Source of the DNA: Candidatus Omnitrophota bacterium | GTDB taxonomy: Bacteria > Omnitrophota > Gorgyraeia > Gygaellales > Profunditerraquicolaceae | Length of the DNA stretch: 64,000 bases | Assembly: GCA_030693145.1 (NCBI GenBank) | Contig: JAUYBI010000071.1 | Span: forward strand, 10,354-74,353 | Direction of reading: 5' to 3' | In this document: piece after piece, positions 5,530 to 64,000 of the stretch | Position numbering within the stretch: position 1 is the stretch's first letter | Layout of the letters: each line of letters begins with the position of its first letter | The notes under the pieces: generated by a model | Databases searched by the model: none | What the model was told of the DNA's origin: nothing | The model's input: only the letters and a program-made list of their open reading frames with translations | Position numbers and translations under genes: made by a program

Positions 5530-5531
5530 AA

Positions 5532-7261: not shown

Positions 7262-7321
7262 GCTAAATAGACTTTTTTAAATACACCTTTAAATTTTACT
7301 TGACTTTTTTAAATATCTACG

Positions 7322-7372: not shown

Positions 7373-7456
7373 GTGCCCCTATTAAAATTGTCCAGTCTGT
7401 TTTTTAGTTAGATTTAATTGATTATTACGTCAATTATATTAGAAAGGAGAGCTTAA

Positions 7457-7969
7457 ATGAACGCAAAAGAGATTTCGGCAGAAGTAGTGGCAATGAAGAT
7501 TTTGTTGGTGAGGGGCAGAAAGGTGATGTTGGATAGGGATTTGGCAGAGATGTATGGTGTAAAGACTAAAGTTCTTTTGCAAAGTGTAAAGCGAAATGCA
7601 AAAAGGTTCCCGGAAGATTTTATGTATCAGCTTATAAAACAAGAGGTTGCCATCTTGAGGTCACAAAATGTGACCTCAAGATGGGGTGGTAGAAGATATT
7701 TACCGTATGTATTTACTGAGCAAGGCGTAGCAATGCTTTCTACAGTTTTGAATTCTGAACGCGCAATCCAGGTTAATATCGCTATTATGCGGGCATTCGT
7801 AAAGCTGCGCGAAGTCTTGTTAACGCATAAGGACTTAGCGCAGAAACTTGAGGAATTGGAACGGAAATACCAATTGCATGAGACAGATATCCAGGCAATA
7901 TTCGAGGCGATTAAGAGATTAATTGAACCGCCGGATGAGCCTCCCAAGCCACGGTTTGGGATGAATTGA
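7457..7969 (+). CDS. ORF6N-domain protein (KilA-N/ORF6N superfamily, phage/mobile-element-associated regulator-like)
   Basis: Protein MLDRDLAEMYGVKTKVLLQSVKRNAKRFPEDFMYQL...SRWGGRRYLPYVFTEQGVAMLSTVLNSERAIQVNIAIMRAFVKLR matches the ORF6N signature. SD AGGAGAG upstream. Confidence 0.65.
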   Translation: MNAKEISAEVVAMKILLVRGRKVMLDRDLAEMYGVKTKVLLQSVKRNAKRFPEDFMYQLIKQEVAILRSQNVTSRWGGRRYLPYVFTEQGVAMLSTVLNSERAIQVNIAIMRAFVKLREVLLTHKDLAQKLEELERKYQLHETDIQAIFEAIKRLIEPPDEPPKPRFGMN

Positions 7970-8042
7970 GATTGCCTACGGCCCCATTTTCCTATCAGGC
8001 TTGAAACAGTTTCTTAGCCAATCGGGAAATAGGGTCGTATTT

Positions 8043-8105
8043 TTTTGTCCAGTCTGTGAAATAAATTCTAATTATTGTCCATTCTAATTTGATATTTGTC
8101 CAATC
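8043..8105. repeat. three spaced copies of TTGTCCA(G/T/A)TC
   Basis: ttgtccagtctg ... ttgtccattctaa ... ttgtccaatcaga, read directly. Same motif as the 640-690 array. Confidence 0.4.
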
Positions 8106-8134
8106 AGATTTGTTTAAGCTGCCTAATGGCAGGT

Positions 8135-8170
8135 AATCTCTTAAAATGGCCATTTTGTCATTCTGAGGGA
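8135..8170. repeat. interspersed repeat family C (gtcattctgagggagcagggcgaccgaagaatag)
   Basis: Variant of the element at 9010-9075 (gtcattgcgaggagcggagcgacgaagcaatc). In coding context that element yields the familiar ...SLRGAERRSNL... peptide. Confidence 0.4.
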
Positions 8171-8188
8171 GCAGGGCGACCGAAGAAT

Positions 8189-8216
8189 AGTAGGGGAGGT
8201 TTAAACCTCCCCTACT
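8189..8216. repeat. family A palindrome AGTAGGGGAGGTTTAAACCTCCCCTACT
   Basis: Perfect 28-nt palindrome. Stem bases differ from the 744-771 copy by compensatory changes (GTGG/CCAC to GGAG/CTCC). Confidence 0.55.
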
Positions 8217-8225
8217 GAAAATAAT

Positions 8226-8273
8226 GGGACCGTTTCTATTTTTCGAAAAGTATCGAAAAATAGAAACGGTCCC
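8226..8273. repeat. family B hairpin element, perfect 21-bp inverted repeat (gggaccgtttctatttttcga / tcgaaaaatagaaacggtccc)
   Basis: Read directly. Related copies at 697-720 (half), 9566-9618 and 24954-25003. Confidence 0.55.
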
Positions 8274-8358
8274 TGATTTGCCCTGATTCGTTATTTTAAG
8301 GGTTTTTTGGGGGTAGGCTACAGAAAGAAAGCGCTACCAAAATTAGTGCAATTTCTAC

Positions 8359-8388
8359 TTGACAGCGTCTATCCGGGGTGTTATATTT
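8359..8388 (+). promoter_or_regulatory. candidate sigma70-type promoter (TTGACA - 16/18 nt - TTATAT/TATATT) upstream of the giant gene
   Basis: ttgacagcgtctatccggggtgttatatt read directly, about 280 nt upstream of ATG 8669. A weak hairpin plus T-run at 8505-8529 lies in the leader. Confidence 0.35.
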
Positions 8389-8668
8389 GAGTGTAAATAG
8401 AAAAGGTGCAAAAGGTAAACTTAGAGTAATCTAAGGACACAAAGCCACGGATCCTAAAATCAAGAAATAGTGTCAAGGACAGCCGGGTTGCCAGTACCGA
8501 CGAAAGTTGGAGCTGACAACTCATTTTTTATTTAAGAACTTAATAAAAAATTTTAAAAACGTTTTAGTAATCTGTAACCTTATGCAAAGAAGCTTCATTA
8601 AAAAAATGAAAAGTCTTGGGGTAAGGGGAAGTATTTATTTTTTATTTAATACTACAGGTAAGTAAAAA

Positions 8669-11600
8669 ATGAATATAAATCAGCAGCAGACAGAAAACAG
8701 TATTAAGCAACCCAAAGAAGAATTCAAGTCAAGTTTTAAGACTTGGATTCGCGCGGTTGCTTTTATTGTTATTGCGGTATTCCTACCAGAACAGGCAGCC
8801 CAGGCAATGGGCTATGACCCCACCACAATCTGGAATCACTCTTATTTCGTTAACCAGGGCAAAAACGGATTTTTAACTTATCTTGTAGCGGATAATGTCC
8901 AACGCTCCTTGAATTCACTTGCCTATAAACAATTAAATCAGGTTCAACTGGATAAAGATTTAGTAATTGAAACAATGTCCATTCATAACCCTGATGCCAT
9001 TGGAAGTGGACAGGGTGCTCCTGTGTCATCGCAAGGAACTTCCCCTGTGTCATTGCGAGGAGCGGAGCGACGAAGCAATCTTTATGATAAAATCAGCAAT
9101 ATCCTGCAAAGTGTCAGTGCGGGAATTCTTAATTTTGCGGTCAACGGCCTGAATAAAATCTCCTCACCTGGCGCTTATAGCCAGGGATTAATAGATTTCT
9201 TAAGTAGGGCAGGTTTAAACCTGCCCTACTCTGACTCAAACCAAGGAACCGCCTCCAGCCAAAAACCACCGCTCTATATTACCGGTTCAGTGGCAAAACA
9301 AATTAACCTGTGGCTTAAGGATCCCAAGACGCAGGTTGATAACAACTGTGGCATCAACGCGCTGAATGCATTATTTGTCCAATCTGGTATTAAAGTAACT
9401 CGTGAGGAATTGGCAACCCGGGCGATTATGGTTGATTTCCTCTCAGGCAATTTGAGGGAATTAAAAGGTGAACTCGCCTTATCCCTTTTTGCCCTGAATA
9501 AAACCGCCATCTCCTTTGGCCTTAAGACCGCTTTAGTCAAAATTCCCGCTTCGGCATTGAATCAAGGGGACGGTTCTGTTTTTCTAACACCAAACTCAGG
9601 AAAAACAGAACCGTCCCCTTTATTTCCATTCATTACCTATCTTTTATCCGAGCACTTTGTCTTAATAACCCGCATAACTGAAGACAAGGTTTATTACCAA
9701 GAAGACAAAGAAGAAGCCAATATGTCCAAAGAGATCTTCCTCAAAGGCTTTACCGGCAATTGCTTGATTCTTGCCTCATCCCTTTCCTCTCAAAATAGTA
9801 GGGGAGGTTTAAACCTCCCCTACAGTTCAGCGGAGGATTTAGTGGAGAATGGGATTGTCCCTCTTTCCGACCAAGAGGCATTACAAATCAGCGGAAAGGA
9901 AAACAATGATAGCCGCCTGCGTTCTTTAAAAACCGCGGTGGGTTTGGCAGTGGGATTGGTTACCAAGAATCCGGCGCTTGGGTCTACGTTAGCGAATACC
10001 AATTGGACGAGCACAGTATCATCTATTCGATCTACTGTGTCTAATGCCCGCAACATCTACAATTCCGCAGTGAATGTCCAGAACACAGTTAAACGAGCAA
10101 CCGGCTTATCCATAGGAAGCTTCACTTCTCCCTTGAGCAATATTAATATCCAGAGCATTAAATCCACTGCCGGCATAGCCACTGCCGTGCTTACCCGTAA
10201 TCCCCGGGCAGGAATGGCAGTAACTAATAGTAATTGGACCAAGACAATATCTAACGGCCTCTCCGGAATAAAAAATACTCTTTCTGAAAAAGCAACCTGG
10301 GCAATAGACCAGACCACCTTTAGTTCTAAACTGCGTAATGAAAAATACTGGAGCGCGAATAAAATAGCGGATGCTAAAGTGTTCCATTATCAATTTTATG
10401 ATGCGCAAAAGCAAACAGCAATGTTTGGAGGGAATGTCTATACCAAACAGCAATGGGATGCTAAATGGAATGAGAAGGCATCGTTTTTCAGTTCATCCAC
10501 TTTAACCCGTGGACAGGAGAATGACCAAGCGTTCAATGCCCTGGTAATCGCCAATCCCAATGGTGTGATTAGCGGGACAATTACCGGCGTCTTAGGTTAC
10601 GCGGGAACAGCCATAAAGTATTCGCGTTCTTTACCAGCAATTTCTCAATATCTACCAACCGGAGTTAAGGGCTTGATTAGCAACCCAACCGCGAGTGTTG
10701 GACTTAGCCGCGCGGGAGGGATAGCTAATTCTATCGGCTCAAAGGGTTATAATTTTGCCAAATGGACACTACAGATGGAGCGGGGCGGTGGAAGCTTAGC
10801 TAAAAATATTTGGCTGACATCATTAAAATATACCACAATAACCGGGCCTATCTATATTGGTATTCCTACGCAGGGCATCTCTTCTGTTTTATACGCTAAT
10901 GGTTATAACAAAGCCGGAGATATAGTATCTGGCCCAAACAGATTTGCAGAAAGGACAATAATTTCTGGCCATGATGTAGTGGGCGGTATCTTAGGTTGGT
11001 CGAATAGAAACATATTCCGCACCAGTATTGGAGATAATCTCTGGAATGAGCAGTATGGCAAACTCGGAAAACTGACTACTGCTTGGAATAAATTTGATAA
11101 AAATAATGAAATTTATTGGAGAGGAACTGTGGGAGACAAGAATTATGAATACCTTGTTAAACCCGTTACTCAAACCGCAGCTATAGCAATAGGAACTTTA
11201 GGAGCAGGCGCATTATACGGAGGTTCTGCTACGGTTCTTTCTCTAAGTTCAAATGCCTTGAGATGGCTTCCTATAGCTGTACCCGCTAATATAGGGCTAA
11301 ATACTGCATCTAAATATTCGTCAACAGGACAAGCTCCAACAATTCATGAAGGAGCCTCTTGGGGCATAGAAGGTGTAGGCGATGCATTTGTATTTGGCAC
11401 ATTACAGAGAGCATATACAGGAAGCAAAATAGCAGTTAATGCTTATCGGCTGGATAGAGTAATCTCTAAGCAGAAGTATTATACACCTATATACACGAGC
11501 TTCACAAATGGAAGAATAGTAACCGCCATAGATTTAGGTAAATTCGGATATAAAGACATCGCTAAGCTCTATCTGTTTAAAGCCGGCCAGTGGCTGCCAA

Positions 11601-14600
11601 AGACAATCAACAGTTTAACCCAGTCAATTTCTTCGCGCATACCAGAAGTGCCTTTGCCAAAATTCTTTAGAGATACCAATGCAAGTTTTAACCTTGGCCA
11701 CGCCGGCCGCGTTGGAGAAATAGCCAGCCGTATTTGGCATGGAATAAAAGGGGGAACAAAAGATGCTTTTGGGGCGCCTTTTAGACTGCATAGGGTAGTA
11801 AAGTTTGATTCAGCCGCAACTGCGCGATGGTCTCAAGCTTCTAACTTAGGTAAAGCTGGAATATTAGCTCGGACAGTAGCTTGGGATGGTCCGGTTTTTC
11901 TGGGAAAATCTCTGGCAATTGAAGTTGTGCCGAGAGCGGGATTTTACCTTGGTACAGCAGGGACAATTGATGCCCTTTTCATTTTTAATGAGAATGAATT
12001 AAAGAAAGAAAATGCTTTTCATCCTCTTAGCCTTGAGAATCCTTTGGGATTAAGGGCAACCGGTTTAAATATGGGGCTAAGACTTAAAGCCGGCGGCTAT
12101 GCTGTTTTAGGAAATTTAGATAAGGCCAAACATACCAATGATTTAGCTGATACAGTGTCGCAAGTTTCAGCAGGGGGCTATTCTGGAGCTATAGCTTATC
12201 AGCTTACCTACCCTGACTATAAACCATTTCTGGCAGAGTCTATATTAAGAACAGGCCTTGCTATTCCTTTTCAAATAATAGCAACTATCGAAGGATTTGC
12301 CGGTTTTCCTTATCGTGTTGCTTTTACCGCACCTTATTATACGAGAAGTGGATGGAATACAGGAGGAGTTATAGGAGGTGTAAAAGGATTTGTTCAGGGA
12401 GGAATAGCTTCACCTGCCTGGGGTATGTTCGGCTTTATTACTTCTATACCTGAATCAGGTGTAAATGTAGTTGATAGTATAGCTGGTAGCGCAGCTAATG
12501 CAGTGGGAATAAAAGAAAAAATTTGGGGTCAACGTACGCCGGGAAAATTAGTTAAAAGTGGCGCTATTTTAAACTACCTCGCATCTGGTATTGAAAAATA
12601 CGATTCTTTTAAGGGGTTTAAGAATTTTGTTGAACCGGAAGGTCATGCTCTCATTCGGGATACAGAAGGTCAATATCTAGGAGCAGATTACTTTTTTGCT
12701 AATGTTTGGATGATGGGAGGCCTTAGGCAGAGCATGGGTTTAAAACGCCCAGAGGCAAAAGGTGCCTCATCCAAAGCTCGCTTGCCCGATACTGCGATTA
12801 TAACCGCTTACCAGAGAATGACAGGTGCCGTGCTTTCTCCGATGCATATAGTTACAGGCCCTGTATTCGGGTTTAGGAATTTAATCGTAGATAAGACTCT
12901 AGGAAAATCAAGTTTTTTGGTTACAAAAGGATGGGTTTCGCCCGCGCAGGACATAAGTATTCCTTCCAGAATAGATGGGTATTTTAAACAAATAGGCGCA
13001 GGATTAACTGGATGGACTCTTATTCCCCTTGATTTATCAAAGATAGTAGGAGCTGAGAAAAAAGTTCTTCCGCTATACCTCAAAGCAGCCAATAACAAAT
13101 ATATTTCCTATATTTATCCCAAAGCCCAGCTTATCTCCATGGTTTATTTCTTCCCAGAAGCGGTTAAAGATTATTCACAATTAAGGAATTTAGGAGCAAG
13201 GCCCGACCAAATTTTAAGAATGCGAGATAAGAAGGTACTAGGAGGTAAAGTGCAGGGTATTGAAATATCTCCGCAAATAAAAATAATTGCAAGCTCTGAA
13301 GAAAGGTTAGCTGCTCGTTTGAAGATAGAAGCCAAAGACACCATAGGGAGCGATTGGAGGTCAGTCAAAACTTTTTCTGACGCAGTTCTTATTCAGGAAG
13401 CTTCGAGAAACTTAGGAAGTGGGGATGTTTTGTCTCAACTCGCTAAGTTAGGGATTGGGATGCGGTCTTTTACTAGAGGTAATTCTCAAATATTAAGAGA
13501 TTACTTCACAAATATAGATACTAATACGCCTTCTCTTTCTGAAAGAATTAAAGCCCGCTATGAAATGGGCTTACCTTCAGAAAAATCTTTAGTAAATGAA
13601 TATTTGGCTTTTAAAGAGCAGGCAACAGAACAGGATATACAACATAAGATAGATGCAGGAAAGATAAAACAGGAAGATGCTGGCTGGATTAAACAACAAA
13701 AAATGCTTTACGCAAAATCTTGGGTAGATTCAGTAACTCCCAAAGATATAATGAATTTTGAGGATGAACTTTATAATTATTATAGAAACGATTACAAAAG
13801 AATAGATAAGAAAGGAAAGGGGCTTAGCGATTCTTTGTCTAAAAGTTTAGCCAAGAATTTTGTGTTACCTACAAAAAATAACCGTGAACTGGTAAATTCT
13901 TATCATACTGATTTCTCAGAAATTATTGCAGCAGAAAATAAAGTTCTAAAAGATATCAGATGGGATTTTCACAATAACAAGTTTAAACCTAAAAATCTTA
14001 AAGCAAAAGGAATAGCAGATCAGTTAAATAGCAATAATGAATTCCTTTCCTTATTTGCAGAACACATTGGGAATATAAAAAGTGAGCAAGGAAAGAAGTT
14101 TAGTGCAGGTAAATTAGATGCCCAGATATACAAGTCTTTAGAAACTATTAAACAACCCAATAAACTATTGGGTGCACCTACAGGTGCCGGGAAAAGTACT
14201 GTAATAATACCTGTTCCTTTAATGCTTCTGGCTACAAGGTCTATAAATTCTTTAGCACTTCATCCCGATTCTGAAAAAACTTTAAATGCCTTTAATGATT
14301 TTGCTAAATATCACAAAGCTCCAATCAATGAGAATAAACAAGCCGGATTTAAGTGGTTTAAAATTGGTAATAAAAAAGTACTCCTTTTAGATTTAAATGG
14401 TCAAGGGCACTATGGTATCCGGTTAGATTACACCGGCATTCGAGAATTACAAAAATACATTAGGGATGCAAATATTGTCTATACAGATGTGCACACTATG
14501 CAGTCCATAAGAATGAACTCTTTATTAGAAGGCAGGTTTGCAAAAAAAGAAGCATTTTCTTACGAAAAAATATACAATTATCTTTCTAAAGATCGTTGGT

Positions 14601-17600
14601 TATTTGGAGATGAAATTCATCAGATTGCACAATCGCCACATTTAATAATGGGGATAAAAGGAGAACCGATAAAAGCTGATTTTTTAAATAGGATTGGAAC
14701 AGAGTTTGATGGGTTTTCCGGATGGTTAAAGAAAAAAGCAGCGCTCAGTGGCGAAGTCAAGGATTATAAAGATTTTGGTAATTGGTTGATAAAAGAGCAT
14801 TTCATTAGAAAAGTTGGCAATCAAGGATATTTAGAGCAAAAACTTGTAAAAGAATTTATAGAATATAAAGAGAACAAAATTGACATAAATAAATTCCGCG
14901 ATATTGAGAATAAAGAATATAAAGATTATCGGCTAATGCTTAATGCTTTTGCAGATGCCTGGGGAATGGTTAAAGAACAACAAGGAGGATATGGTTGGTC
15001 AGGAGATAAACCTTTGGAATTAGAATTCAGAGGCAAGCCAGTGCCTATTCATGAAGGTAAGCTAGCTGCACAGATGTATTGGAGTTTAGAAAACATTGTT
15101 ATTGCGCGTTGGATTGCTGCAGCACGAATGGAAGGATTTAAGGGGAGTGTAGATAAAATTATGTTCAATGAGAAGGGGGAATCTCGTATAAGTGCAAGCC
15201 CCGAGTCCCTAAGAGTTACACCTATGAGTATAGTAAAAGATTTTAATTATAAATCTTTCCTTTCTGCTACTCCCGAGTGGGCAGGGCCTATTTCTCGGTT
15301 TATGGGCGTAGGGGTAGAAAGAAGGAATACGCTTATGAGTGAAATAAAGAATTACTTAAAGAGAGAAACGCCGAAAGATCAATTTCAGTATCAATTTAAA
15401 CTAGAACATGTAGGATATTTTAAAGATTTTAAGAAAGGATTAGAACAATTTAGCTATGACGGTCCAATTGTTATTAAGCCCGCCTTTACATACCACAAAG
15501 ATAAAATAGCAGAGATGGTTGTTGGTTATGCAGAACGTACAAATAAAGTCCTGTTTGTTATGAAGGACGGTGGTTTTGAAGTATACCGTAATGGTATTCG
15601 TGACAGTATGATAGTTGACAAAGAAACAGTGAAAAAAAAATTATCCGAAGGAGAAAATATAGCGGTTTTATTCGACCGCCCTAATTTAGTAGGGTATAAC
15701 TTAGATTTTGGGAATAAAGGGGACATCCCTGCAAGTCGGCTTAGTAAAGATCCTAAATATATTACTGTCATTGATTCGGATACTACTGCTACTGAGTTTA
15801 GGCATACATTGGGAAGAAACCGTGGAAAATTCACAGAAAATGTTTGGGTTCTTGATAGGGAAGGGAAGATAAATGATGTAGATAAATTGATAAAACAACT
15901 TGAGAAAAATGAAAATAAGGCATTGGTCGATGCTTTTTATCAAGCATTTAATAATGTTGCTCATCAAGGGATGATTTCCCGGTTTGACTTGCTAAGGAAA
16001 TTCTCATTGAATGATTTAGATTACAATATAGTAAAAGATTTTCAAACAGAATTTCAAAGTAGGAACAAGATGGATGACGATATCAGCCCGCGTAGTGATA
16101 TGGATTTGGCTACCGCTATCGATCGTTCAGCAAAGAAAGAAGCCAAAGATTTTGTAGAAGTAGCTCAAAAGTTTAAAGGTAAGCTCAATCCTGCGCAAAA
16201 AAATTATGTAGAAAACTGGATAAAAGAAACCGAAAAGATAAGTAAACAAGGAATAGAATTTAAGGGTAACGATGTGAATAGAGACGGAGAGAGGTTAGCC
16301 AGAGAGATTGGCTGGGCAAGATTGGATTTTAGCGAAGCTACAAAAGTTTTTAGCGAAACTTATAAACGTAAGGAACTCGCAGAAAAAAGAATATCCCTTA
16401 TGTCTTCTTTAGCTATTCCGCGAGAAATTAATTGGGTAGGAATAGCTAAAGAAGGAATGACGAAAGATAATTTCCAAAAAGGCCTTACAGCAGAGATAGA
16501 GAAAACAGGCCTTTCACATAAATACTCTGAAGGTTATAGCAAAGATTTAGTTTCTTCAATGCCCCAAGACGTATTTAAAGGCAGGTTCACATATTTAAAG
16601 AGTCCAGCCATTACTGCTGGAGGAATTGGGTTCTTAAATATACTTACACAGCTTTCTTCTTCAAATGAGGATGAGATAGAAAAAATTAAAAATATACTCC
16701 TAAGTCTATTTGATTTTAACAAGGCACAGGAGTTTGCTCTTAATTTAAGAGGAATTTCTACTGATTCTGCACTTTATCCATTTTATTTGGGATTCTTGGT
16801 TTCTTCGTTAAACATTCATAGTAGAGAAGAATTAAGTAGTGTCATAAAGACGAGAGAAGCTTATCTTAAAAATGTATTCAATGGGCTCCCAGATAATGGA
16901 ATAAAAAAATATTTAAGTGACCGAAATTTGATACATTTTGGAATTCCAACTTTTGACGGTTATTCTTTTATCAATAATTTCCGCTATTCGCAAAATATTG
17001 TTCGGAACAGAGGGTTAGAAGAAGCAACAGTTATAAGAAATTTTGCGTTTCCCAAAGCAGCTATTCAACAAAATAAAGGGTTTCATGAAGACACAAGTTT
17101 TGAAATTGCAAAACTTCTTCATAAATATGATATTACTTTACCCCAACTTTACGGTGTCGCTAAGTCAAGTATGGCCTTAGTGGTGCAAAGAAAGGTTACT
17201 CAGCTCCCCAAGTTAAAAACAGTTAGCAGGATACGCGAAGGTTTAGATTTTATGAATTGGTTAAAACAAGAAGTTGTTCCTGATACAGAACTTCATTCTT
17301 GGCTGTCTAAAAAAACAGAAATACTTAGTAAGGCGAATAATAAATTAGAAGATAAATTGAATAAGGTGTATGGACGAAGCGGCGCAGCTAGGTATTTATT
17401 AAGAGGTATAGATAATTATCGCATTAGGAAAGAAATTTATAACTATAATAAATTAACCACATCTACCGATTTGGAAAAATTAGAAGAACTAATTGGAATT
17501 GATTCTAAGGCCTCCGTTAGTATTTTTAATCCCAAATTGTCTTTTAAGGAAATTGAAGATTCCGTAGCAACCATAAAAGGCTTATCCTTGTTGGGGAATA

Positions 17601-20600
17601 AAGTGCCTTTGGGTAAAGTTACTCTTTCTGAAATATATCAGAATTACGATATCGCTAAGCTTAATGGATTATCGACGATTAAAAATATTCCTCAGATTGG
17701 ACTTTTAGCTGATTATGACTTTGATAATTTACCTATGGATATTTCGGATACTTTAGCGAAATCTGCGCCGATTATTTTACCCAAAACAATCACTCAGGGG
17801 ATAATTAATAATCTTGGGTTATCTGAAAATGAAGCTAAGTTAGTCTTAGGGGGAAGCAGGCCATTAATCGTAGTAAAAAATCAGGATAAATTTACTATTT
17901 TTGAAGCAGGCGGCATCAAAAGAGAAAACATAGATAACGCCGATTTATTTGATCTTGTAAAACCTATTACAACGAATGAATTTCTCAGCCAAGGCATGGA
18001 AAAGAAATTTGTTCAAACCTATACCGATTTAATACCAGAGGTGGAGTATAGAGAAGATTTAGGATATACAGAAAAAATGGGTAAAAAGTTATTTGATAAA
18101 GCGATTAAAGATATGCATTTGTCTGATATTTACAAATTCTATGCAGATACAAAGGATATTTCTACCCTAAAGACAGAAGAAGTGATTTTTAAACAATTTG
18201 GAAGAGAAATAAGAAGAAATTTTGGTTTCAATCCTGATATTTGGACAATAAAAATGGCATTAGATAAAAAACAAACAGGTTGCGTTACCGATACGCAATT
18301 TGCGGCTTTATTGGCAAATACAGTTAATATGCCCGTAGAGTATCAGAGAATAGAGGGCTTATCCAGGCCGCATTTCGTACCCATTATAAAATTTGCTGAC
18401 GGCAACAAAAAAATAGTAGATTTTACACCTTATTTAGATGAAACAAAAGTTTCATTTATCAGCAAGCCCATAGATATAGAAAATGATTTTGAAAGATTAT
18501 CCGGCAGTTTTAATCAATACCGGCTCAAATTAGGAATAGATACGGCAGATAGCTACTTAGATGCCCAAAGAGAGTTAAGAAATTTGCCTAATACCGGCCT
18601 TACTGCCGCTATCTATGGAAATATGGGAATGCATGATGATAATTTAAAACATTTATTTAAAGCTCTTGAATACGACCCCCAGTATCATCAAATTAAAGAT
18701 AAATTAGAAAGAGAAGGATTTATTATTCCTGTTGAATATAATGGTAACCAATATCTAATCGACAAAGAAATCGCTTCTAATGAAGTATTAAAGAAACAAC
18801 TTGCGCAGATTCCTTTACCTGAACGCAACATAATCTTAGACAAAAATAGCCTGATAGGAAATAACGGTAATAGTATTACAGAGGGTGTGGTGCGTAAAGG
18901 TGGAGTTCTTTACCTTAATTCAAAGATTTTAACTGATGATAATAAAGAAATTTTATTTCAAGCTTTAGAGTATGGTCTTAACGGAATAAATCCTGAGAAG
19001 GGCGTTGTCCATATTCTTAAAGCAGCCAAAGTTACTAAGCTGAAAGATAATGGCATTGGTTCCGGTGTTCCTTCTTTAGAAAGAATGTTTACATACTTTA
19101 AAGATAACGGTCACGGTCTCTCTGAAGAAGTAATTAACGATGCGGCGATATTTATCGGAGAAAAGCTAAAATCCGAGGAAATAGAAGCAATAATTAATGC
19201 TTGGCCAACTGACGGCGGCAAAGGGGTGGTGGATAGAAGCAGAGTAGAAGAAGCAGCTAAGTTTTTAGCTGGCCGGATTGCAGACTATGGATTAGGATTA
19301 CTGGCGCAACGGGCTGTAGAGGAAGCAATGGCCGATGCGAAAAAATTATTATATTCTGAGAATGAGATAAAGGAAGCGTTAGAATATTTGAATGCTCAAA
19401 AGGAAGCGGTTGAGAATATGTTTGTCTTGAATAATAAGCTTCGGGAGGAGTTTAATACTCTCGATCTAAAAGATTACGCTAAATTATTAGAACAACATAA
19501 GCAGCTGCAAAGAGAAGTTAATCCGGGGATGGAAAATATCATAAAAATCAAGATCGAAGCCGCGATATTAGATGAAATAATGAAACTTCTGGCGGCCCCA
19601 ATTGAGCAGGTTGCATTGATAGCCGGTAAAGCAGAGAATTCTGTTTTTTACGCAGATGAGCTTATAAAAGTTAGTACAACGCAGGCAAGGAATACAGGTT
19701 ATTCAATTTCAGGAAAAGAAGAGGATGCGCTTATTTCGCGCATTGTTGATTTGCGGAATGAAGAAAGAAATTATATTTTATTACATAACCATCCATTTGG
19801 CGTAGATGTGGAAAATTCAGGTTCGGATAAAGAGCAGATAGAAAATTTCGCGGCATTTATAAGCGTTATAGGAAACAATAAAGCGCCTCTATCTTGGCTT
19901 GCGGCTCAACGTTTGGATAAGGAAGGCAATTGGGAATACATTCCGTTTACTATAACAGATAATGGTAGGCCAATGCCGCTTGAAGCAGTAGAAAAGCGGT
20001 TTGGTAAGGCAATTAGCTATTATCCCGGATTGATTGAACATTTCACTAGTCATATTGTGGCTGGTAAATTAAGCAAATTGATAATAGATAAAGCTAATCA
20101 GCCGGCAGAAACGGATTCTGGCGAGCCTGTACGTGGGCAATCTCCAGCGCTTCCTCCTATTACACCAAACATACCTATGTCACCGTCTTTACGAGATGGC
20201 GGGGCGCAGCGGGTTCCGTTTGGCTTATTTAATAATAAAATAACTACCATATTGCCACAATTGGCGGCTCGGATTGGTGAACTTCCTGGTATTACTTTGA
20301 GCAAATGTTATGGCAGCGTTAATCCCAGGGGCCCGCCTGCTGGTTCCACGACTGACTCTTTAGTTGTAAATGTAAGTAGTGTAGCAAGTGTAGTAAGAAA
20401 CGCAGTTGGTTTAGTTGGAAAACTGTCAGGTGCCCAGAGTGTTGACTCCAGAAATGGAGCAAGAGGGCAGGATGCAGAAGGTGCGTCCAACAGTAATATA
20501 GGTAAGAGAAGTGGAGTAAGTTCAATAGGAACCAATGGTGAGGCAAAAGGTGCCGAAACCCGAGGTTCTATTCGTGCGTATGGCTTCCGCAATAAGATTA

Positions 20601-50600: not shown

Positions 50601-53600
50601 GCGAAGAAAGCAAAAAGGAAAGCGCTGAAAAGAAAGGTATTTTAGGCGGGCTCAAGGCGGAATTACAAGATTTAACTAAAAAACAAATCCGCCAGCCATA
50701 TAAGCTTAATCAAGAAAATAAGGTGAGCGCTGAATTTGAAAAGGCAAGAAAAGAATTTCAGGAAAAATATTTCCCCGGCATCAAAAATCCCGTGGTTGTC
50801 TTTGGCGGGGCAATCAGAGATTGGTTCTTAAATAGTGGAAAACTGCATCCGCAGGCAGATATAGATGTGCTTATCTCAGTTGAGTTGACCAAGACCGAAA
50901 AACTGGCGATTTCCTGCGCTGTTTTTGAATCTATACTCTACGGCAAGGACGCTTTGATTACCTACGACGAATTAAGCAAATTATTCTATCCACAATTAGT
51001 AGCGAGAGAAGCTTTGCTTAAGAAAGATACTAACGAAATAATTTTGGCCGGTAAAAAGGACAAGGAGATAGAGCCAGGCAACCGGCCTTGGGATAATTTC
51101 GTGAACAAAGCAAAGAAATCTGAAGAGGAAAGTTTAGCCTTTGGCGGAGAAATATTCAGCGTGGAAGGGCTGATGGAGGCTAATTTAGAGAATAATTATA
51201 AATCCTTATATTATTTCCTCTACTGGAATCTTAGAAAAGATGTTCTTAAAGGAAAGGTTCAGGCTAATGCTAAAGATGATAAGGCCTACGAAAAATTAGT
51301 TAACGCGGATAAGAAAAATACGGTTGAAAAAAATGGTAAACATATCCATGTTTTAGGTATGATAGACAATGAAGGTTTTGTGTATATGAAACCGGAAGCG
51401 GAAGAATTATTTAAGAAAAATCTGCATTATCTTTCTGTTGAGAGAGCGGGGATTAATCTTGCGACCGGCGCGGCTTGGGCGGATGAGGGAAGTATTGAAG
51501 ATTTAGAGAATAAGCAGTTGGCTATTCGCAATCCTGATAAGGCGAAGGATAAAGAGATTGATTTTGCCCAGTTGTTTAGGTTAGTAAGGTTTAATTTTCA
51601 GTACCCGCATCCACAAGCCGCTATTGACGAAAATGTGATATCTCTTATCAAAAGTTTCTTCGAAGATTTCGGGAAGGAAAATTCAGAATTTACGGCCATC
51701 AAGAAATGGAAGGCAAGAAAAGCCGAATTAGAGAAAGAATTAAGAGAAAGCGCTGCTAAAGAGGAAGCAGAAGCCGCGGAAGAGATCCCTGCATCTGGAG
51801 GAAAAGGTAAATACGGTAAGAGTACCAAGAAGCAGGAGGCAGCTAGTGCTAAAGGAAAGTATGGTAAGAGTGCGAAGAAACAGGAAGCAGCTGCCGGTGC
51901 CAAAGGAAAGTATGGTAAGAGTGCGAAGAAGCAGGAAGCATCTTCCGGCGCCAAAGGTAAATACGGTAAAAGTACCAAAAAACAGGAATCTGGCAGTGGC
52001 AAAGAAACTAAGAAGAAAGAAACAACTGCTAAAAAAGGCTACGGTAAAGGAGATAAGAAACAGGAAGCAGCAGAAGCTACGGGAGCTGAAGCCGAAGCTT
52101 TGTCTCCCGGACAAATTGCCGAGAAAGTCAAAAAGATCTTAAATGAAGAATTCGAGATTGAACAGATGGTGGATGTTATATTCAGATATGCTTCCAATCC
52201 ACAGGCTGCGCTGAAATCTTTAACGGAGGCAGGCGGCGCAGAGCCGTTCTTAAAGGAAAATGGCATTGATCGCGTTGCTTTAGATAAGAAAGCAGAAGAA
52301 AAACAGATTATCCCTTCGGATAAAGTTTTATTTGAGAGAATGGCCGGCTTAAAAGTTTTAATGCGTTTTGTCAATGCCGGCATCATTGAGCTCAAAGATA
52401 AATCAGGCGCTAAGGAGAAAAAATCAGATTTAAAGGAGAAGGTTAGAGAAGAAGCGGATAAAGATTTGACTGAGTATCTCTTGGGCAAAAAAGAGGAAAA
52501 ATCTCTGAATGATTTACTGGATAAGCTTGGGCTGGCGAAGGAAGTGACAGATAAGAAGAAAGAGACAGCTAAGAAGGAAGAGGCAGTTAAGTTTGAAGTA
52601 GCTAAAGATATTACAGATTTGATTGATGCTCTGTTGAAAGAACAAAATATCACTGATGTTGAAGAAAAAACGGAAATAGCAGAGTTTATTGAAGAAGTTA
52701 TTAACTGGAAGCCGTTAAGCGCTAATAATAAATCTTTACGCGAGATGATTACCAGCGAAGCTCAACTGAAGAATGTTATGTTAAGGACTCTGGAATTAGC
52801 GCTTGAAGAGAAAAAAGGCGAAGAATTTAAGAAAGCGTTGAAGAAAAAAGAAGCCGAGGAAATTTCCAAGGCGGAAATTAAGATTAATCCTTCAGAGAAT
52901 AAGGAAGAAGTATCTCTTCCCGCGATTGTGTTTGTTTTGGGCGATGTTAACGCAACTATCCCGGCTTTAAATGAAGCGCTAGCTATTCTGGCTAATAATC
53001 CGCATACCACTGTTTACCTTGTTCCGGCAAAACGCTTGCATTTAGCTAAAGAACCCAGGATTTCCGAAGAGGGATTAAAACGTTTATTAGCGAGGCCCGA
53101 ATTTATCAGATTGATACCTTTTATCAATTCTAAACGGCTGATGATTGTTGAAAAAGGGCTGGTAACCGAGACGGTGGAAATAGGGAAATACAGTGAATCA
53201 GCAACCGCAAAAGATACCGGCGCAGTGCTTAATTATCTGCCTTTGGTAGGCAGGAACCCGGAAATCATTTCCGAAGAATCAAGAGAAAAGAAGGTAAAAG
53301 AATATATTAAAAACAAGAAGCCTTTTACCATTGCCTTTGTTGATTTTGATGAATTGACTAAATATCATGACGCTTATGGCAGGAATTTGAAACTTGCCGG
53401 CAAGGTCAGGATAATCATCCAGGATATAATTAATCGGCTGGAAGATGAATATGCCGGAGCGGAGATAAATCAGATACAGGGAAGAGGCGATGAATCGGTT
53501 ATTTTAATCAGGGGCACGGATAGAGATACAGCTTACGAGATTCTGGAAAAGATACGCAAGGGAGTGATTAAGGATAGCATTGGCCGTTTGTTTATCGCCG

Positions 53601-56600: not shown

Positions 56601-59600
56601 CGGCAGGAACTAATCCCGCCGCTGTCTTGGTAAGGAAGCTGGAAGCCAAGCCGGTATCGGCTGAGGTAGTAGAAGCAAAGGATGCGTTCAGGGGGTTATT
56701 AAAAGATATAGAAGATTTATCGGTAGCGGGTAGCAAAGGATTGGATAAAATTACTGAAGAGTTTAGCAGATTAAAGACAACATATAATGAACAGCTCAAA
56801 AAAGATAATAAAAATGATGAGTTATTGCTGATAGTAAAAGAAGTAGAGATGAGAGTGGCGAAAATAAAAGTTGGTATACTTAATTCAAAAGCAGAGGAAT
56901 CTCAAATTACCGATGGCGAAGGGATATTGGTTAAGTTGAAAAATAATTCAGAAAATTTGAGCAAAGGAGTTGAAGATTCTAAAGCACAATATAAGGATAC
57001 GTCTGCGATAGTTAGCGAGGTAAAGGAAACAGTAAGAACAAAAGAAGCGCAATTCAGGCTTGCATATTTATTCGAGAAGATAAAGAATATGTCCCCGTTG
57101 TCAAATGAGCAAATACAGCAAGTAAATAATCTTATATCGGAATTAAGGGTATTTAAGTTTCAATACCGCGGTTTGCTTAGAAATGGAGATATAGCTAAGA
57201 TTGCGGAGAAAGAGGTTGAGCTATTTTTAATAAAGGTGCAAGCTTTAGTTCAACTTAAAGATGACAAGAAACAGCAGGCGCGTTTCAGTAAAGAGTTGAG
57301 AGAGATTGTCAGTGAATTCAGGGTTTTGAAACATGAGTACAGAGATTTCTTGGATAATGAAAAACTTCATCAGCAGATTGATCTTATTAATCCGAACCTC
57401 ACAGAATGTGTTGAGGAAGAATTTTCCCTTTTCACAAAAAAGGTTAGAACTTTATCTAGACTCACAGGACTTGGGCGTTTAGTTGGAAAATTGAGAGAAA
57501 TCGCCGGTTGGTTCCTTAAAGATACAAGAATTCGTCAGCAGATCAATGGTATTAAGAACAGGTTTATTGAATATTTCAAAGTAGAGTTTTCGTTCTTGTC
57601 GAGCAAGGTTGAAACCCTATCTATACTTAAAGATAAGAAACGTTTCAGCAAGGAGCTAAAACAGATTGTTGGTGAGTTCAGGGTTTTGAAACATGAGTAC
57701 AGAGATTTCATGGATAATGAAAAACTTCATCAGCAAGTTGGTCTTATTAATCCGAACCTCACAGAATGTGTTAAGGAAGAGCTTACTCTTTTCTCAAAAA
57801 AGGTTAAAACTTTATCTAAACTCACAGTTGGTAAGCGTTTAGTTAGAAAATTGAGAAAAATCGCGGGTTGGTTCCTTGGAAATAAAAAGCAGCAGGTATA
57901 TTTCAGCAAAGAGTTAAGAGAGGTTATCAGTGAGTTCGGGTTTTTGAAAGATGAGTATAGAGATTTCTTGGATAACGGAGAACTTCATCAGCAGGTTGAT
58001 ATTATTAATCAGAACCTCATAGAATATCTTAAGAAAAAATTCTCATTTTTCTCAAATAAGGTCGAAGCCTTATCTAAACTCAAGGACAAAAAGCATTTTA
58101 GTAAAGAGCTAAAAGAACTTATCAATGAGTTCAGAGGGTTAAGGTATGAATACAGAGATTTCTTGGATGATAAGGTTATCCGCCCGCAGGTAGAAGGAAT
58201 TAATCAAGAGCTTGTTAAACAGCTTAAGAAAAAATTTTCATTTTTCTCAAACAAGGTTGAAACTTTATTTAATGGGCGGTTTGAACGCTTCGGTAAAGAA
58301 CTAAGAAAGATTGCGTCCGGCTTCTTAAAAGATAAAAAGATTCCTCAGCAAATTATGAGTATTAGAAATAAGTTTGGTGAGTATTTTAAGGCAGAACTTT
58401 TGTTCTTGTCGAAAAATAAACTTGAACATTCCAGCAAGAAGCTAAAAGAGATGTTTGATGAGTTTAGGGTATTAAAATTTGAATACAGAGATTTCTTGAA
58501 TGATGAAAAACTTCGTCAGCAGGTCGAAAATATTAATACAAGGCTTATTGAGCATAAGGAAGATATAGAATGTCTATTAACAAAAATTAAAGTGTCTTCT
58601 GTGCAGAAAGATGCTGTTCAGCAGTTAAACAGCTCAAATCGTGATGGCGGCAAATTTTCTACTTTTCGAGAATATAATAAAGTATTTTCTTCTTTGCCGT
58701 TAATGTTTCTGTCCTCTGGGCTATCTGGTATTATGGGGGATTTGGTAGCCTCAGTTGTTATTGCCATTATTATTATGGTTATTGTGGTTATTCTCAAAAT
58801 TATTGAAGATATTAAAAATTCAAATTTATTATCATTGAGTTATTGGGTAGACGAATCTATTTATTATTATTTAGAAGTTAGAGAATCTCTAGCTAAATCT
58901 ATAGTTAAATATTTAGGGCGGTATAAAACTAATTGGGTATTTGCGTTTCTTACGAAAGAGTTGAATGATACAAATGCAGGGGTCCGTAATGCTGCAGTAG
59001 AAGCCCTTGGAAGACTTGGAAATCAAAGAGCAGTTGAGCCGCTAATCGCAGCGTTGGGTGATAATGATAGATATGTCCGCTCCTCTGCCGCCAAAGCCTT
59101 AGGCAATCTTGGCGACAAACACGCTATCGAACCTTTGATTAAGATATTGGGTGATAATATTATTTTTGTCCGCGAAGCCTTAGTGAAAATCGGCCAACCA
59201 GCAGTAGAACCTTTGACTAAGGCATTAGGTGATAAAAGTTCCCATGTCCGCTCCGAAGCCGCTAAGGCTTTAGAGAAATTAGGCGCCTTAACCACTGAGC
59301 TTAAAATTAGGAAATATATTAATGATTTAAGTGATAATGCTAGTTTTGTCCGCTACTTTGCCGCCGAAAACTTGGGTAATCTTGGTGACAAGCGTGCAGT
59401 TGAGCCTCTAATTAAGCTATTAAGTGATAGTAATTGCGATGTCCGTTCCTATGCTGCCAATGCCTTAGTAAAAATCGGCCAACCAGCAGTCGAGCTTTTG
59501 ATTAAGGCGTTAGGTGATAACAATAACGGTGTCCGCAAATCTGCCGCCGAAGTCTTAGAGAAATTAGCCGTTTTAACTCCCGAGCTTAAAGTTACGAGGT

Positions 59601-62600
59601 ATATTAAAGACTTAGATGATAATGATAACGATGTTCGTGCATCTGCCGTCAAAACCCTAGGAAGTCTTGGTGACAAACGCGCCATCGAGCCTTTGATTAA
59701 AGCATTATTAGCTGATAGCGGTGGCTCTGTCTGTAAATCCATAGCTATAGCCTTAGGCGAAATCAAAGACCCAAGAGCAGTTGCACCGTTGATCGTAGCA
59801 CTGGGGGACAAAAATAATAATGTTCGCTACTACTCTGCAATAGCTCTTCTTAAGATATCTCAAGATTCTGGAATTATTGCAAAAGCAAATAAGGTAATAG
59901 AGGATATAGATCGAGAATTGGAAGCAGAAAGTTCTTATTCAAGCGATGATTCTGATGATAGATCTTCATCAGATGACGGTGATTACGAATTTGAATGTCC
60001 TGAAGATGTAGAAGCACACGAAGAAAATCGAAGGTGGATGCGAGACAGAGATACATTTGGTAAATTAATAGGCCTTGCAAGAGATTGCGGATTAGAAGAC
60101 CCCGAAGCCAGAGGAAGCCGAAGCTCGGGGAGAAACGTAAGGTCCAAGAGCGATTATGATATTTCTTTGTCAGGTTCTAGAACCGTGTTACGAAGTGAGC
60201 TTATGGAAGAAGATTCTCGCGTAAGGGAATTCGTAAAGCGTGCTTCTGAAATAACTGGTAAAAAGGTTGATGTATATCGTGAGCATAGAGAAAAATCTAG
60301 TGATACAGATCATGAATCCGATTATACCTATGATGATTGTGGTTTGGGTATTTATACTGCCGAGGGCAAAGTTGATGATGATGCACAGGAGAAAACAGCC
60401 GCGGAAATTAAAGACGCGCAAGAAAATGAACGGCTGAAAAAATTCAGCGAGCTGGATAAGAAAACGCAGGAGGAATATGAAAACAAAGGAGTTAAAACCC
60501 TGCTTTCAAAAGACAATCTGTTTATTGTTTTGCCCGGAGAGGAAGACAATAACGCGCCTTTCCTTTGGTATGAGAATGAAGATAGATTCACAGTTGCCGC
60601 AACATCGGACGGGAACATTTATATTCCTCAATCATTGATTGACGCCTTACTTGCTATCGGACAGATTGGCTTGCTGGAGAAAATAATTAACCATGAAGAA
60701 AATGACTTAAAGAGCGGAGAGAATAAAAAGGAAGCCGAACAAATAGCCCAGTTGATTAAGAAAGAATTATTCCAGAAAGATTTCTTTGTCGGGATTTCTC
60801 CGACTTTTGTCAAAGACGGCAGGAATTATTCATATCAGGAATTAATTAAAGAATTAGACCATAATAAGGCAAAAGAATACCTGACTAAATGGCAGGAATT
60901 GGTGAGCGGGAAATTTGAGCTGGCAGGGATTATAAAAACAGCTCTGATTGACGGAAAATTTTATGAATTAAAGGGAGAAAGGGGCTCGATGCTTTTCTTT
61001 GTGGTTAGAGAAGAGCAGGAACTGGTGGAATATAAGATTATCGAGATCGTTGACGCGGTTACAAAGGCATTTGAAAAAGACGGCTTTAAGGCCGAGAATT
61101 TCTTAAGCTATTTTGAAATCTCGCTGGATAGCATGGACAGCAATGATATTTTTCTGATGTGGCAGGCATATTATACGGCGGAGTTGAAGGCAACCTTTAC
61201 CACTGCTTCGGGAAATCAGATAGCTAAGACAAGTTTTGGTGAGATTGCCCAAGCGAATAAGCGGTCAAAGGAAGAGCCTGTTTATTTGGAGAAGCGCGAG
61301 AAATCTTATGAGAAAGCGTTAGATTATAAGGTAACAAATTTAGCTGATACAAGGCTTATTGGGTTAAAGACAGCGGAGAAAGAGAGCAAAAATGAAATAG
61401 TCGCCTCAATTACCGCCAGAGAAAAAGAGTCACCTGCCGATGAGGCGCTGAACGTTGATGATTATCTGGTGTATTTCAGATGGGCGGTCAGGCATAATAT
61501 TGGAACAGGCACGGTTTTGGCGCATGAAGTTTTGGATTTATACAGTATCGAAATCGATGACTTAATCCGGTTGACACGAGAAGCTGCAGGATATTTGGGA
61601 AGCGAGTCTGAGGCAGTCAGGTATCTTAGAGAAGCGTTAGAATATAAATTTGCTGAGGGATTGGGTATAAAAGAAAATGTGCAGAAAACATTAGCTCAAA
61701 TGTGGACAGTTTTACTGGAAGGTTTGATTACGCCGGCGTTCTTCGAGACGGCAGTTAAATCAGTTAAGGTAGGAAAAATTGAAGGCGTAGAAGATAAAGA
61801 ATACGAAGCAATCCTCAATTTCATTTTAGGCAATAAAGATGAGATTAGCAATATAAGCGGTATGCCAATACAGGATATTTTAGGTTTAGTGGCTTCACGC
61901 ATAATCAATATTGTCGGGCAGGTAAGGTCAGGAAAGAGTACTTTGGCCAAAAAGTTATATAAATTATTCTTTGATCAGTGCAAAGATGTTGTGCTGGTGG
62001 ATATTGGTTTGATTTATCGCGCCTACGCGTTGTTTATTAAAGAGCTAGTGGATAATGGAGACGCCAGCGTATTGGCTTCGGAAGAAAATATTATCTGGGT
62101 TTTAAGAAAAGCGAATGTGGAAGTCCGGGGAAAGAATGTTTACTTAAACGGAAGCGGCTTATCCGATACCCGGTTGCACGATGCTAGCGTGGAGGATGTC
62201 CTCACTAAGATTACTACTGATAAGCCGAAGGTCAAGGCTTTTCTGCAGGAAAAAGACCGGGAAATCGTCAATCGTATTCCTAAGACAACCTGGGTAATCA
62301 TTTCCAGCCGCGGTTTCTATCCGCAGGCAGGCATGAATATTTATTTGGCCGCGGACATTGAAGAAAGAACTAAGAGGGCATTTATCGCTAAAGGCAAGAA
62401 AGCAGAAAAAATTAACCAAGAGTTTATTAATAGTAAGGAGTTTAATGACGAGAAGGGAAAAATCGAAGATAGAGATTTCAAGGATAGAAGCGATGAAAAC
62501 CTGCGTAAATATCCGGGAATCTTTACCTTAATTGATACTACTGGCAAAGATTCTGATAGAGTTTTAAGCGAAGTCACAAAAATGCTTAAGAAATATGATG

Positions 62601-64000: not shown

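Follow-up and report, generated by a model that had tools for sequence, protein, structure and literature searches.

Can a reading frame that stays open across more than 55 kb of a metagenome contig be a single genuine gene and, if so, what kind of protein does it encode and what switches it on? These questions are raised by a 64,000-nucleotide (nt) stretch of DNA (hereafter, the window) from Candidatus Omnitrophota bacterium (assembly GCA_030693145.1, contig JAUYBI010000071.1, positions 10,354–74,353 of the forward strand), in which a preliminary description had noted a giant gene that leaves the window at its 3′ end. Our analysis indicates that the window very probably holds the first 18,444 codons of a genuine Omnitrophota giant gene of the multi-enzyme, membrane-anchored, 'Archaeovorin-like' class, and that the leader of this gene contains a predicted riboswitch of the cyclic di-GMP (c-di-GMP) I clan.

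A single open and coding frame

The element in question is the following:

8669–64000, plus strand: giant open reading frame (ORF), 5′ part only; 18,444 stop-free codons from the ATG at 8669, running past the window end

Recomputation of the six-frame stop map bore out the uninterrupted frame that had been traced by hand. In the plus-strand frame with codon starts equal to 2 mod 3, the final stop is the TAA at 8663–8665, and the 55,338 nt from 8666 to 64000 contain none, that is, 0 stops in the 18,444 codons from 8669; the five remaining frames of the window hold 704–2,081 stops apiece. Given the base composition, about 1,276 stops would be expected in 18,444 codons, with the log10 probability of finding none at about −574. 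Codon usage was compared between each of nineteen 3-kb tiles and the rest of the gene, yielding correlations of 0.81–0.95 in the open frame and 0.18–0.48 in the shifted frames; the sole exception is a tandem-repeat tile (38669–41668), for which r is 0.53 in frame compared to 0.03 and −0.07 in the shifted frames. The open frame is real, coding throughout and not a product of chance, as had been argued from its length.

A reassigned stop codon or a compositional quirk might, in principle, make a non-coding or multi-gene region look open, and the length of the frame itself, but nothing more, speaks for this possibility. All three stop codons, absent from the giant frame, are nevertheless in use next to it: the 12 upstream genes terminate in TAA (10 genes), TAG (1) and TGA (1), so that the standard genetic code applies, in agreement with the preliminary description. 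Recoding or an alternative code is refuted by this stop usage together with the six-frame stop map and the well-scoring Pfam domains that lie in frame along the gene, and the probability of such an explanation is negligible.

Domain architecture of the giant protein

The visible 18,444 amino acids (aa) were scanned against Pfam and NCBIfam as twenty overlapping 1,000-aa tiles, alongside PDB sequence searches. In 13 of the 20 tiles, no significant Pfam family was detected, and the bulk of the protein is unannotated. The recognizable features of the giant gene, all on the plus strand, are these:

8669–8806, plus strand: signal peptide or signal anchor, with a K/R-rich n-region, the hydrophobic core AVAFIVIAVFL and an AXA-type site (PEQAAQA followed by MGYDP); hydropathy peak at aa 21–47
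9281–9778, plus strand: C39-type papain-like cysteine peptidase, aa ~205–370 (Pfam PF03412, 27.7 bits, cut-off 22)
25757–27160, plus strand: polytopic membrane block with two ICMT-like domains flanking a signal peptidase II (SPase II)-like segment; dense hydrophobic helices at aa 5396–6315
28379–28960, plus strand: M28 zinc aminopeptidase, aa 6571–6764 (PF04389, E 5.5e-29; PDB aminopeptidases 2ek8, 6hc6 and 1cp7)
33890–34126, plus strand: GNAT acetyltransferase, aa 8408–8486 (PF00583, E 3.1e-14; RimI-like in NCBIfam)
39413–40802, plus strand: a 354-nt (118-aa) unit repeated 4 times in tandem, with 84% identity between copies (Tandem Repeats Finder, self-BLAST)
53276–53572, plus strand: degenerate GGDEF-like segment, aa 14870–14968, with RGDES in place of GGDEF (TIGR00254, E 8.7e-5; its 22.3 bits fall short of the 37.4 cut-off)
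57131–58600, plus strand: diverged K/E-rich helical repeats of ~125 aa, aa 16155–16644 (self-BLAST)
58883–59932, plus strand: HEAT-repeat array, aa ~16739–17088 (HEAT_2, 5.5e-56; HEAT_PBS, 9.3e-44; PDB alphaRep, up to 2.8e-86)
61907–62590, plus strand: cytidylate-kinase-like P-loop domain, aa 17747–17974 (PF02224, E 3.6e-12; NCBIfam cmk, 1.4e-12), with the Walker A motif GQVRSGKS at aa 17750

The ICMT/PEMT-type methyltransferases of the membrane block occupy aa 5697–5789 and aa 6045–6164 (PF04191, 3.1e-10, and PF04140, 3.8e-9); two stretches match isoprenylcysteine methyltransferases in NCBIfam, and 5vg9 is matched in the PDB. The SPase II-like segment between them (aa 5841–5996) scores 24.6 bits with PF01252, just below the cut-off of 25. 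A weak match to DUF3857 (aa ~10,665–10,734) is located at the 3′ edge of the tandem array. Thus, most of the domains named in the preliminary description were recovered, namely, peptidases (C39 and M28, with the SPase II-like segment below threshold), a P-loop kinase, the methyltransferase in two copies, the acetyltransferase and the HEAT repeats. The exception is the nucleotidyltransferase, to which, at best, the sub-threshold GGDEF-like segment corresponds.

A Kyte-Doolittle scan identified 54 hydropathy windows with a mean of at least 1.6, which merge into approximately 35–40 clustered helices (aa 27–45, 4914–4945, 5396–6315, 6882–6926, 7304–7381, 8219–8260, 8719–9153, 12816–13227, 13769–13959 and 16694–16712). 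The last of these, with a hydropathy of 3.24, is the final strong transmembrane helix and follows the K/E-rich repeats. The helix clusters are set apart by soluble blocks of 2–5 thousand residues, the longest measuring ~4,900 aa.

The 354-nt array, the only long repeat of the gene, is Asn/Thr/Ser-rich and beta-strand-like, with a GC content at third codon positions (GC3) of 0.50–0.53; an AlphaFold2 model of the 118-aa repeat, built from the internal-repeat alignment, reached a predicted local distance difference test (pLDDT) score of 38.6 and was not used. Elsewhere in the gene, self-BLAST revealed only diverged repeats (42–64% aa identity); an element of ~170 aa is duplicated at aa 4868–5032 and aa 5235–5401. 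Repeats make up only a small fraction of the gene, and a repeat-driven open frame was accordingly rejected.

PDB sequence searches with aa 1–5,000 and aa ~9,600–14,600 produced no match. Among the 20 tiles of the visible 18,444 aa, neither Pfam nor NCBIfam detected the SecA_DEAD/SecA family at E ≤ 0.01. Likewise, no Pfam match to dockerin, TSP3 or discoidin was found in the window protein, and the transmembrane clusters begin at aa ~4,900; on these grounds, assignment to the dockerin-type class of giants, which West-Roberts 2023 characterized by numerous dockerin/EF-hand and TSP3 repeats and by few N-terminal transmembrane helices, was rejected.

A conserved N-terminal C39 module

The protein database search that the preliminary description had proposed was run with aa 1–1,200 as the query on a set of 1.84 billion cluster representatives and returned 213 homologues at E ≤ 1e-3, 19 of these at E ≤ 1e-30, with lengths up to 7,074 aa. 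Most of the homologues match aa 1–105 and/or 200–370, at their own N-terminus. Of the 20 that were looked up, 18 had a source name, and all 18 are labelled 'partial'; 17 come under Omnitrophota/Omnitrophica or shortened 'Candidatus …' labels, including 'Candidatus Gygaella obscura', and one under Margulisiibacteriota.

The start of the protein is conserved in two alignments (A1 and A2) as K..W.R-hydrophobic-PEQAAxA followed by MGYDP, in which the AXA motif, read by eye, is a putative signal-peptidase site. Cys227 and His329 are invariant in both alignments. An AlphaFold2 model from a 6-sequence alignment reached pLDDT values of 65–90 over aa ~205–370 only, with aa 1–200 below 50; in Foldseek searches, the modelled C39 region matched LahT150 (6mpz), ComA (5xe8/3k8u) and PCAT1 with a probability of 1.0 and a target-normalised template modelling score of ~0.7. 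According to this model, the N-terminal head is predicted to adopt the C39 peptidase fold with an intact catalytic Cys/His pair. The fold and the catalytic Cys and His are shared with the C39 domains of peptidase-containing ABC transporters (PCAT1, ComA and LahT) and with the C39-like domain of HlyB. In contrast to those domains, the C39 of the giant protein is not fused to an ABC transporter, and it is predicted to lie outside the cytoplasm because a signal peptide precedes it.

The closest relatives of the giant protein are P0001 (76% identity over 1,500 aa), P0002/P0152, P0003 and P0004. All of these are co-linear with it over aa 1–5,573 at 25–79% identity, and P0003 has one extra aligned block (7,328–7,672). 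The relatives are mosaic: their blocks of 40–79% identity are interrupted by stretches that cannot be aligned and by indels exceeding 1,000 aa. Independent Omnitrophota assemblies are therefore co-linear, though mosaic, over the first ~5,600 aa and, together with the open frame, coherent codon usage, in-frame domains, conserved start codon and N-terminal module, they sustain the earlier claim of a giant gene that runs out of the window.

Searches with other parts of the gene yielded little. A 400-aa query returned only 5 short homologues, and no relative of the last 1,000 aa was found in a protein-based scan of metagenome contigs. No homologue was retrieved for the last 1,333 aa or for aa 3,500–4,500, yet P0002 is 56% identical to the latter segment, so that this search missed real relatives. 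The genome, viral and metagenome contigs searched contain no exact copy of a 60-mer taken from the window's 3′ terminus.

Some C39-headed genes are called complete at only 466–649 aa (L012, 163–1563; L011, 7117–9066; L013, 745–2265, in the loci described below), and in L012, one such short gene is followed by a riboswitch and then by a second C39-headed gene. The C39 head may also occur as a gene of its own or in tandem; alternatively, frameshifted assemblies may account for the short calls.

Assignment to a known class of giant proteins and alternative explanations

Giant genes of this kind are well represented in the literature on Omnitrophota, tiny bacteria that live as predators or symbionts. 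ORFs longer than 20 kb were reported in 77 of the 116 species-representative genomes of Velamenicoccia and in other classes; the ORF of Velamenicoccus archaeovorus encodes 39,678 aa with 42 transmembrane helices, its peptides are up 3-fold in attached cells, and Tad complexes have been linked to life as a predator or parasite (Seymour et al. 2023, PMC10066038). West-Roberts et al. 2023 (10.1101/2023.11.21.568195) described giant ORFs of up to 85,804 aa with a C39 (or S8) peptidase near the N-terminus beside a signal peptide, numerous transmembrane helices, HEAT, GNAT, methyltransferase, peptidase and GGDEF domains, neighbours that resemble the type II secretion system (T2SS), and small PilZ genes immediately downstream. 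The catalogue of Nielsen & Lui 2026 extends to a length of 147,155 aa and lists 5,761 Omnitrophota proteins with 10,000 aa or more, 80% of which are singletons at 30% identity; the largest architecture cluster is C39, the mean number of transmembrane helices at ≥10 kaa is 22, and secretion or pilus genes flank 13 of the 14 largest giants. Accordingly, the extreme rarity that the preliminary description had ascribed to such proteins finds no support: the gene belongs to a known, heavily catalogued class and is not the first of its kind, and the N-terminal C39 and flanking secretion/Tad genes are already described features. Under the thresholds of at least 10,000 aa for 'large' and at least 30,000 aa for 'giant' proteins, the product, with at least 18,444 aa in the window and a 3′ end beyond it, is at least 'large'.

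Comparison with the Archaeovorin type (type sequence, the 39,678-aa protein of V. archaeovorus LiM), whose counterpart in Nielsen & Lui 2026 is class 1 ('multi-enzyme metabolic clusters'), reveals a shared Omnitrophota origin, a signal peptide with a C39 head, dozens of transmembrane helices at approximately the published density, and HEAT, methyltransferase, peptidase, GNAT and GGDEF-like content. Also shared are the mostly unannotated, fast-diverging mosaic sequence, the Tad/T2SS-like neighbours and the same-strand, operon-like layout. The differences are the lack of detectable TPR in the visible part, along with the further domains considered in the next paragraph, the long region for which no close relative was found, and a leader riboswitch that those papers do not describe.

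Several points weigh against the assignment to a genuine giant gene of this class. The visible 18,444 aa gave no match to several domains that are typical of Archaeovorins, namely, SecA_DEAD, glycosyltransferase, glycoside hydrolase and NUDIX; the missing SecA domain does not exclude membership, given that the published feature, divergent SecA_DEAD or SecA preprotein-binding domains, holds for 'most' full-length giants rather than all, and it may lie beyond nt 64000. For aa ~7,700–18,444, no relative was found in searches that are insensitive there and do not amount to evidence of absence; the case for this part comes from its open frame, its codon usage and the domains within it. The count of transmembrane helices comes from a hydropathy scan, such that the placement of domains inside or outside stays predicted. 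Translation as one chain and continuity on a single molecule are predictions from the assembled sequence, and the adhesion or predation function, the riboswitch ligand and its ON polarity are what we infer from sequence. Finally, GC3 changes along the gene: it is 0.26–0.33 across most of nt 11.7–32 kb, with one 1.5-kb tile up to 0.38, and mostly 0.39–0.53 downstream (32669–64000), falling to 0.33–0.37 near 56.7–61.2 kb; the upstream Tad genes have values of 0.43–0.55, and the best change point is at ~32.7 kb. Modules acquired in a mosaic fashion could explain this shift, as could, with lower probability, a chimeric assembly.

Such a chimera would join, in frame, different giant genes (strain variants or paralogues) at shared sequence, or else a repeat array could have been miscounted. 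In addition to the GC3 changes and the strong mosaicism of the relatives, this explanation draws on the local assembly errors that have been documented in such genes (West-Roberts 2023), on the metagenomic origin of the contig, for which a 3.9-kb Logan contig (SRR13727537_6726) is the only exact match to the upstream genes, and on the 4 x 354-nt array, which short reads could miscount. Nevertheless, long tandem repeats account for only ~1.4 of 55 kb and the other repeats are diverged, which leaves little substrate for false joins; each join would have to keep the frame and make no stop; codon usage is coherent in every tile; and the independent assemblies P0001–P0004 are co-linear with the N-terminal part. 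We therefore consider an assembly artefact very unlikely. The class assignment would survive even in that case, since the parts of a chimera would themselves derive from real giant genes.

Whether one ORF means one protein is a separate issue that is compatible with a genuine giant gene. The product could be a polyprotein that one of its peptidase-type domains (C39, M28 or SPase II-like) cleaves into many separate proteins, or internal starts could be used, and in either case the cell would contain no chain of 18,000+ aa; this is suggested by the location of a C39 peptidase with intact catalytic residues at the N-terminus and by enzyme domains that are mutually unrelated and separated by clusters of membrane helices; the same possibility was raised by West-Roberts 2023. 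However, the C39 domains of ABC transporters cut after Gly-Gly leader motifs, and GG dipeptides are not enriched in the protein (96 observed versus 93 expected, a crude test), no marks of internal cistrons are present in the sequence, and peptides of the giant ORF of V. archaeovorus have been detected (PMC10066038), though this is not decisive on processing. On balance, division of the product into separate proteins appears doubtful.

A predicted c-di-GMP riboswitch in the leader

The region between the upstream genes and the start codon contains the following features:

8359–8387, plus strand: sigma-70-like promoter, TTGACA-17-TATATT with a TG extension (11 of 12 consensus matches)
8405–8496, plus strand: aptamer of the c-di-GMP-I clan (GEMM-I; Rfam RF03167, 61.1 bits, gathering score 59, E 5.7e-12, full-length match 1–80)
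8485–8534, plus strand: predicted intrinsic terminator, a ~15-bp hairpin (8485–8522) followed by AUUUUUUAUUU (−21.4 kcal/mol, z = −2.8)

The promoter, which recurs nearly base for base in two related loci (L002 and L003), is dedicated to the giant gene. RNA folding prediction places the 5′ arm of the terminator over the 3′ side of the aptamer, forming an expression platform. Equivalent terminators are present in L003 and L004. In L002, the aptamer and the hairpin are precisely deleted together, with the promoter and the sequence from the U-tract onward retained. In the Rfam scan of the window, the riboswitch alone scored above threshold, with no tRNA or other family, and no second aptamer was found before the pilin cluster of the window.

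Among the related C39-headed genes, aptamers of the same clan are located 7–205 nt upstream of the start in L003 (1885–1972), L004, L005 (9073–9166), L007 (9827–9920), L008 (1020–1106), L013 (453–541), L014 (593–691) and L015 (676–757); L004 carries two aptamers (9785–9890 and 700–856), one of which precedes its first pilin gene, and in L012 (1673–1749), the aptamer precedes the second of two tandem C39-headed genes. Thus, including the window, an aptamer stands before 10 of the 16 related C39-headed gene starts. In an alignment of 7 related sequences (A4), 13 of the 19 predicted pairs are supported by compensatory double changes, a count that comes from a small sample.

The window RNA conforms to the c-di-GMP-I riboswitch clan (CL00126: RF01051 and RF03167) in its score above the gathering threshold, two-helix architecture, GNRA-type loop (GUAA) and compensatory changes, as well as in the position of the aptamer between a promoter and a terminator and the surface- or attachment-type gene downstream, beside a pilus operon. 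Riboswitches of this clan typically control pili, adhesins, motility and membrane proteins. What sets the window apart is a regulated gene of at least 55 kb and a best score with the 'GGC' variant model despite a canonical A: where the RF03167 'GGC' variant consensus has CGAAG, the window RNA carries CAAAG. It reads AAGGU...CAAAGCC...GUUGCC, which we take to be the canonical G20/A47/C92 pattern in Vc2 numbering, with c-di-GMP as the ligand presumably expected from the Vc2 structure; by these residues, the aptamer looks like a canonical c-di-GMP binder.

We lean slightly towards the view that the c-di-GMP riboswitch is a conserved transcriptional ON switch for the C39-headed giants of Omnitrophota and, in some genomes, also for the adjacent Tad pilin genes. 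No report of a riboswitch before Omnitrophota giant genes was found in a full-text search of the literature, which turned up unrelated papers only, and none is mentioned in West-Roberts 2023, Seymour 2023 or Nielsen & Lui 2026, so that the leader riboswitch is apparently a new detail of an otherwise known gene class.

The upstream Tad-type neighbourhood

The genes upstream of the leader are as follows:

Upstream of the giant gene, plus strand: DUF192 gene
1524–5529, plus strand: about 8 small to medium genes, several with type IV/Flp-like pilin N-termini that suggest pilins or pseudopilins of a Tad-type pilus (ORFs 1524–1889, 1904–2251, 2154–2564, 2515–3681, 3614–4078, 4059–5084, 5066–5317 and 5323–5529)
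5532–6377, plus strand: TadB-like platform protein (T2SSF; PF00482, E 7.5e-18)
6380–7261, plus strand: TadC-like platform protein (T2SSF; PF00482, E 1.3e-14)
7457–7969, plus strand: ORF6N/Rha-like DNA-binding protein of the phage antirepressor type (PF10543, E 1e-34)

When GTDB species representatives were scanned with the N-terminal alignment, nine related loci (L002–L010) emerged. The order of pilin-like genes, TadB, TadC and C39-headed ORF is kept in the nine loci wherever the upstream sequence suffices, and in 8 of the 9, the C39-headed ORF runs off its contig. The TadB-like protein is syntenic in L002–L007 and L010, at 55–87% identity, and the TadC-like protein in L002–L008 and L010. Pfam support for the pilin-like cluster consists of a weak match to the Class III signal peptide only; the pilin-like N-termini cross-match each other, and multiple paralogous copies occupy the equivalent position in L002, L004, L005, L006 and L007. 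The ORF6N gene is present in two copies in L002 (7620–8123 and 8934–9443), partially in L004, and not at all in L003 and L005–L010, a patchy distribution that identifies it as an insert that varies among loci at the junction of tadC with the giant gene.

Seven of the nine related loci are labelled Omnitrophota in GTDB. The remaining two are L004 (JAIWAR010000014.1), in a metagenome-assembled genome (MAG) of a 'Methanosarcinales archaeon', and L008 (CAIWXV010000015.1), in a 'Dehalococcoidia bacterium' MAG; both have the typical layout of Tad genes, riboswitch, C39 and giant ORF, and both labels probably result from mis-binning. The first of these is notable in that Velamenicoccus archaeovorus reportedly preys on methanogens of the group named in the label.

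A hairpin with a perfect 20-bp stem (GGGACCGTTTCTATTTTTCG...CGAAAAATAGAAACGGTCCC) is located at 8226–8273, after the ORF6N gene and ahead of the promoter of the giant gene; the Logan contig SRR13727537_6726 ends just before it. This hairpin may terminate transcription in both directions, or it may be a repeat at which short-read assemblies break.

Short repeat elements

Two short elements recur in the window. A perfect 26-nt palindrome, GTAGGGNNGGTTTAAACCNNCCCTAC, occurs at the intergenic positions 745–770 and 8190–8215 and, in frame inside the giant gene, at 9204–9229 and 9798–9823, where the copies translate as R[A/G]GLNLPY and flank the C39 domain on both sides. Variant copies preserve the symmetry through compensatory changes, and the palindrome looks like an element of the repetitive extragenic palindromic type that is tolerated within coding sequence. 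The second element, the 33-nt GTCATTGCGAGGAGCGGAGCGACGAAGCAATCT, is found at 9049–9081 (plus strand) and 22553–22585 (minus strand), with partial copies at 8157–8172 and 22966–22981. The copy at 9049–9081 is in frame, is translated as VSLRGAERRSNL (aa 127–138), and forms an insertion relative to the homologues. In P0002 and P0003, the linker that follows the C39 domain contains similar 'SLRG/PLRGG' insertions, which points to this linker as a hotspot for short in-frame repeat insertions.

Possible function and implications

A tentative scenario for the locus can be outlined. The giant protein would be exported and inserted co-translationally by the Sec pathway; large blocks would face each side of the membrane, and the ~4,900 aa that directly follow the signal peptide would be outside. 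It would then form a cell-surface or envelope structure that, together with the Tad pilus, attaches to a host or prey and processes its surface, the role that has been proposed in the literature for Velamenicoccus archaeovorus and other Omnitrophota. Cleavage of the polypeptide itself or of partner proteins may be the task of the C39 head and possibly also of the M28 and SPase II-like domains. In the leader, bound ligand would keep the aptamer closed and thereby tie up the 5′ arm of the terminator hairpin, which could then not form, leaving transcription ON; the cost of a transcript longer than 55 kb would thus be paid only in the attachment state.

Large adhesins under the control of c-di-GMP include LapA of Pseudomonas fluorescens, which is regulated post-translationally via LapD/LapG, and the riboswitch-controlled adhesins and type IV pili of Clostridioides difficile. 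Common to these and the giant protein are a very large surface protein and a display tied to c-di-GMP and attachment. Those adhesins differ in being repeat-rich, secreted proteins of 2–9 thousand aa, without multiple membrane passes or enzyme domains, and there is no sequence relationship.

By itself, the giant ORF changes little, being one more sequence-unique member of a class with thousands of examples. The usefulness of the locus lies in its intact 5′ end, which brings together the promoter, leader, start codon, signal peptide, C39 head and Tad operon. If the riboswitch is confirmed, it would offer a simple regulatory hypothesis, namely, that c-di-GMP turns the gene on, for proteins whose function and expression have been a matter of guesswork, and this hypothesis concerns a 90-nt RNA that requires no cultivation. 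If the switch operates as proposed, these bacteria would commit to a transcript of at least 55 kb and a protein of several MDa only upon a second-messenger signal of contact with host or prey and, in conjunction with the internal GGDEF-like segment of the protein and the PilZ genes that have been reported to follow other giants, would possess a self-contained c-di-GMP circuit. The riboswitch would then provide the first experimentally tractable handle on when and why giant proteins are made.

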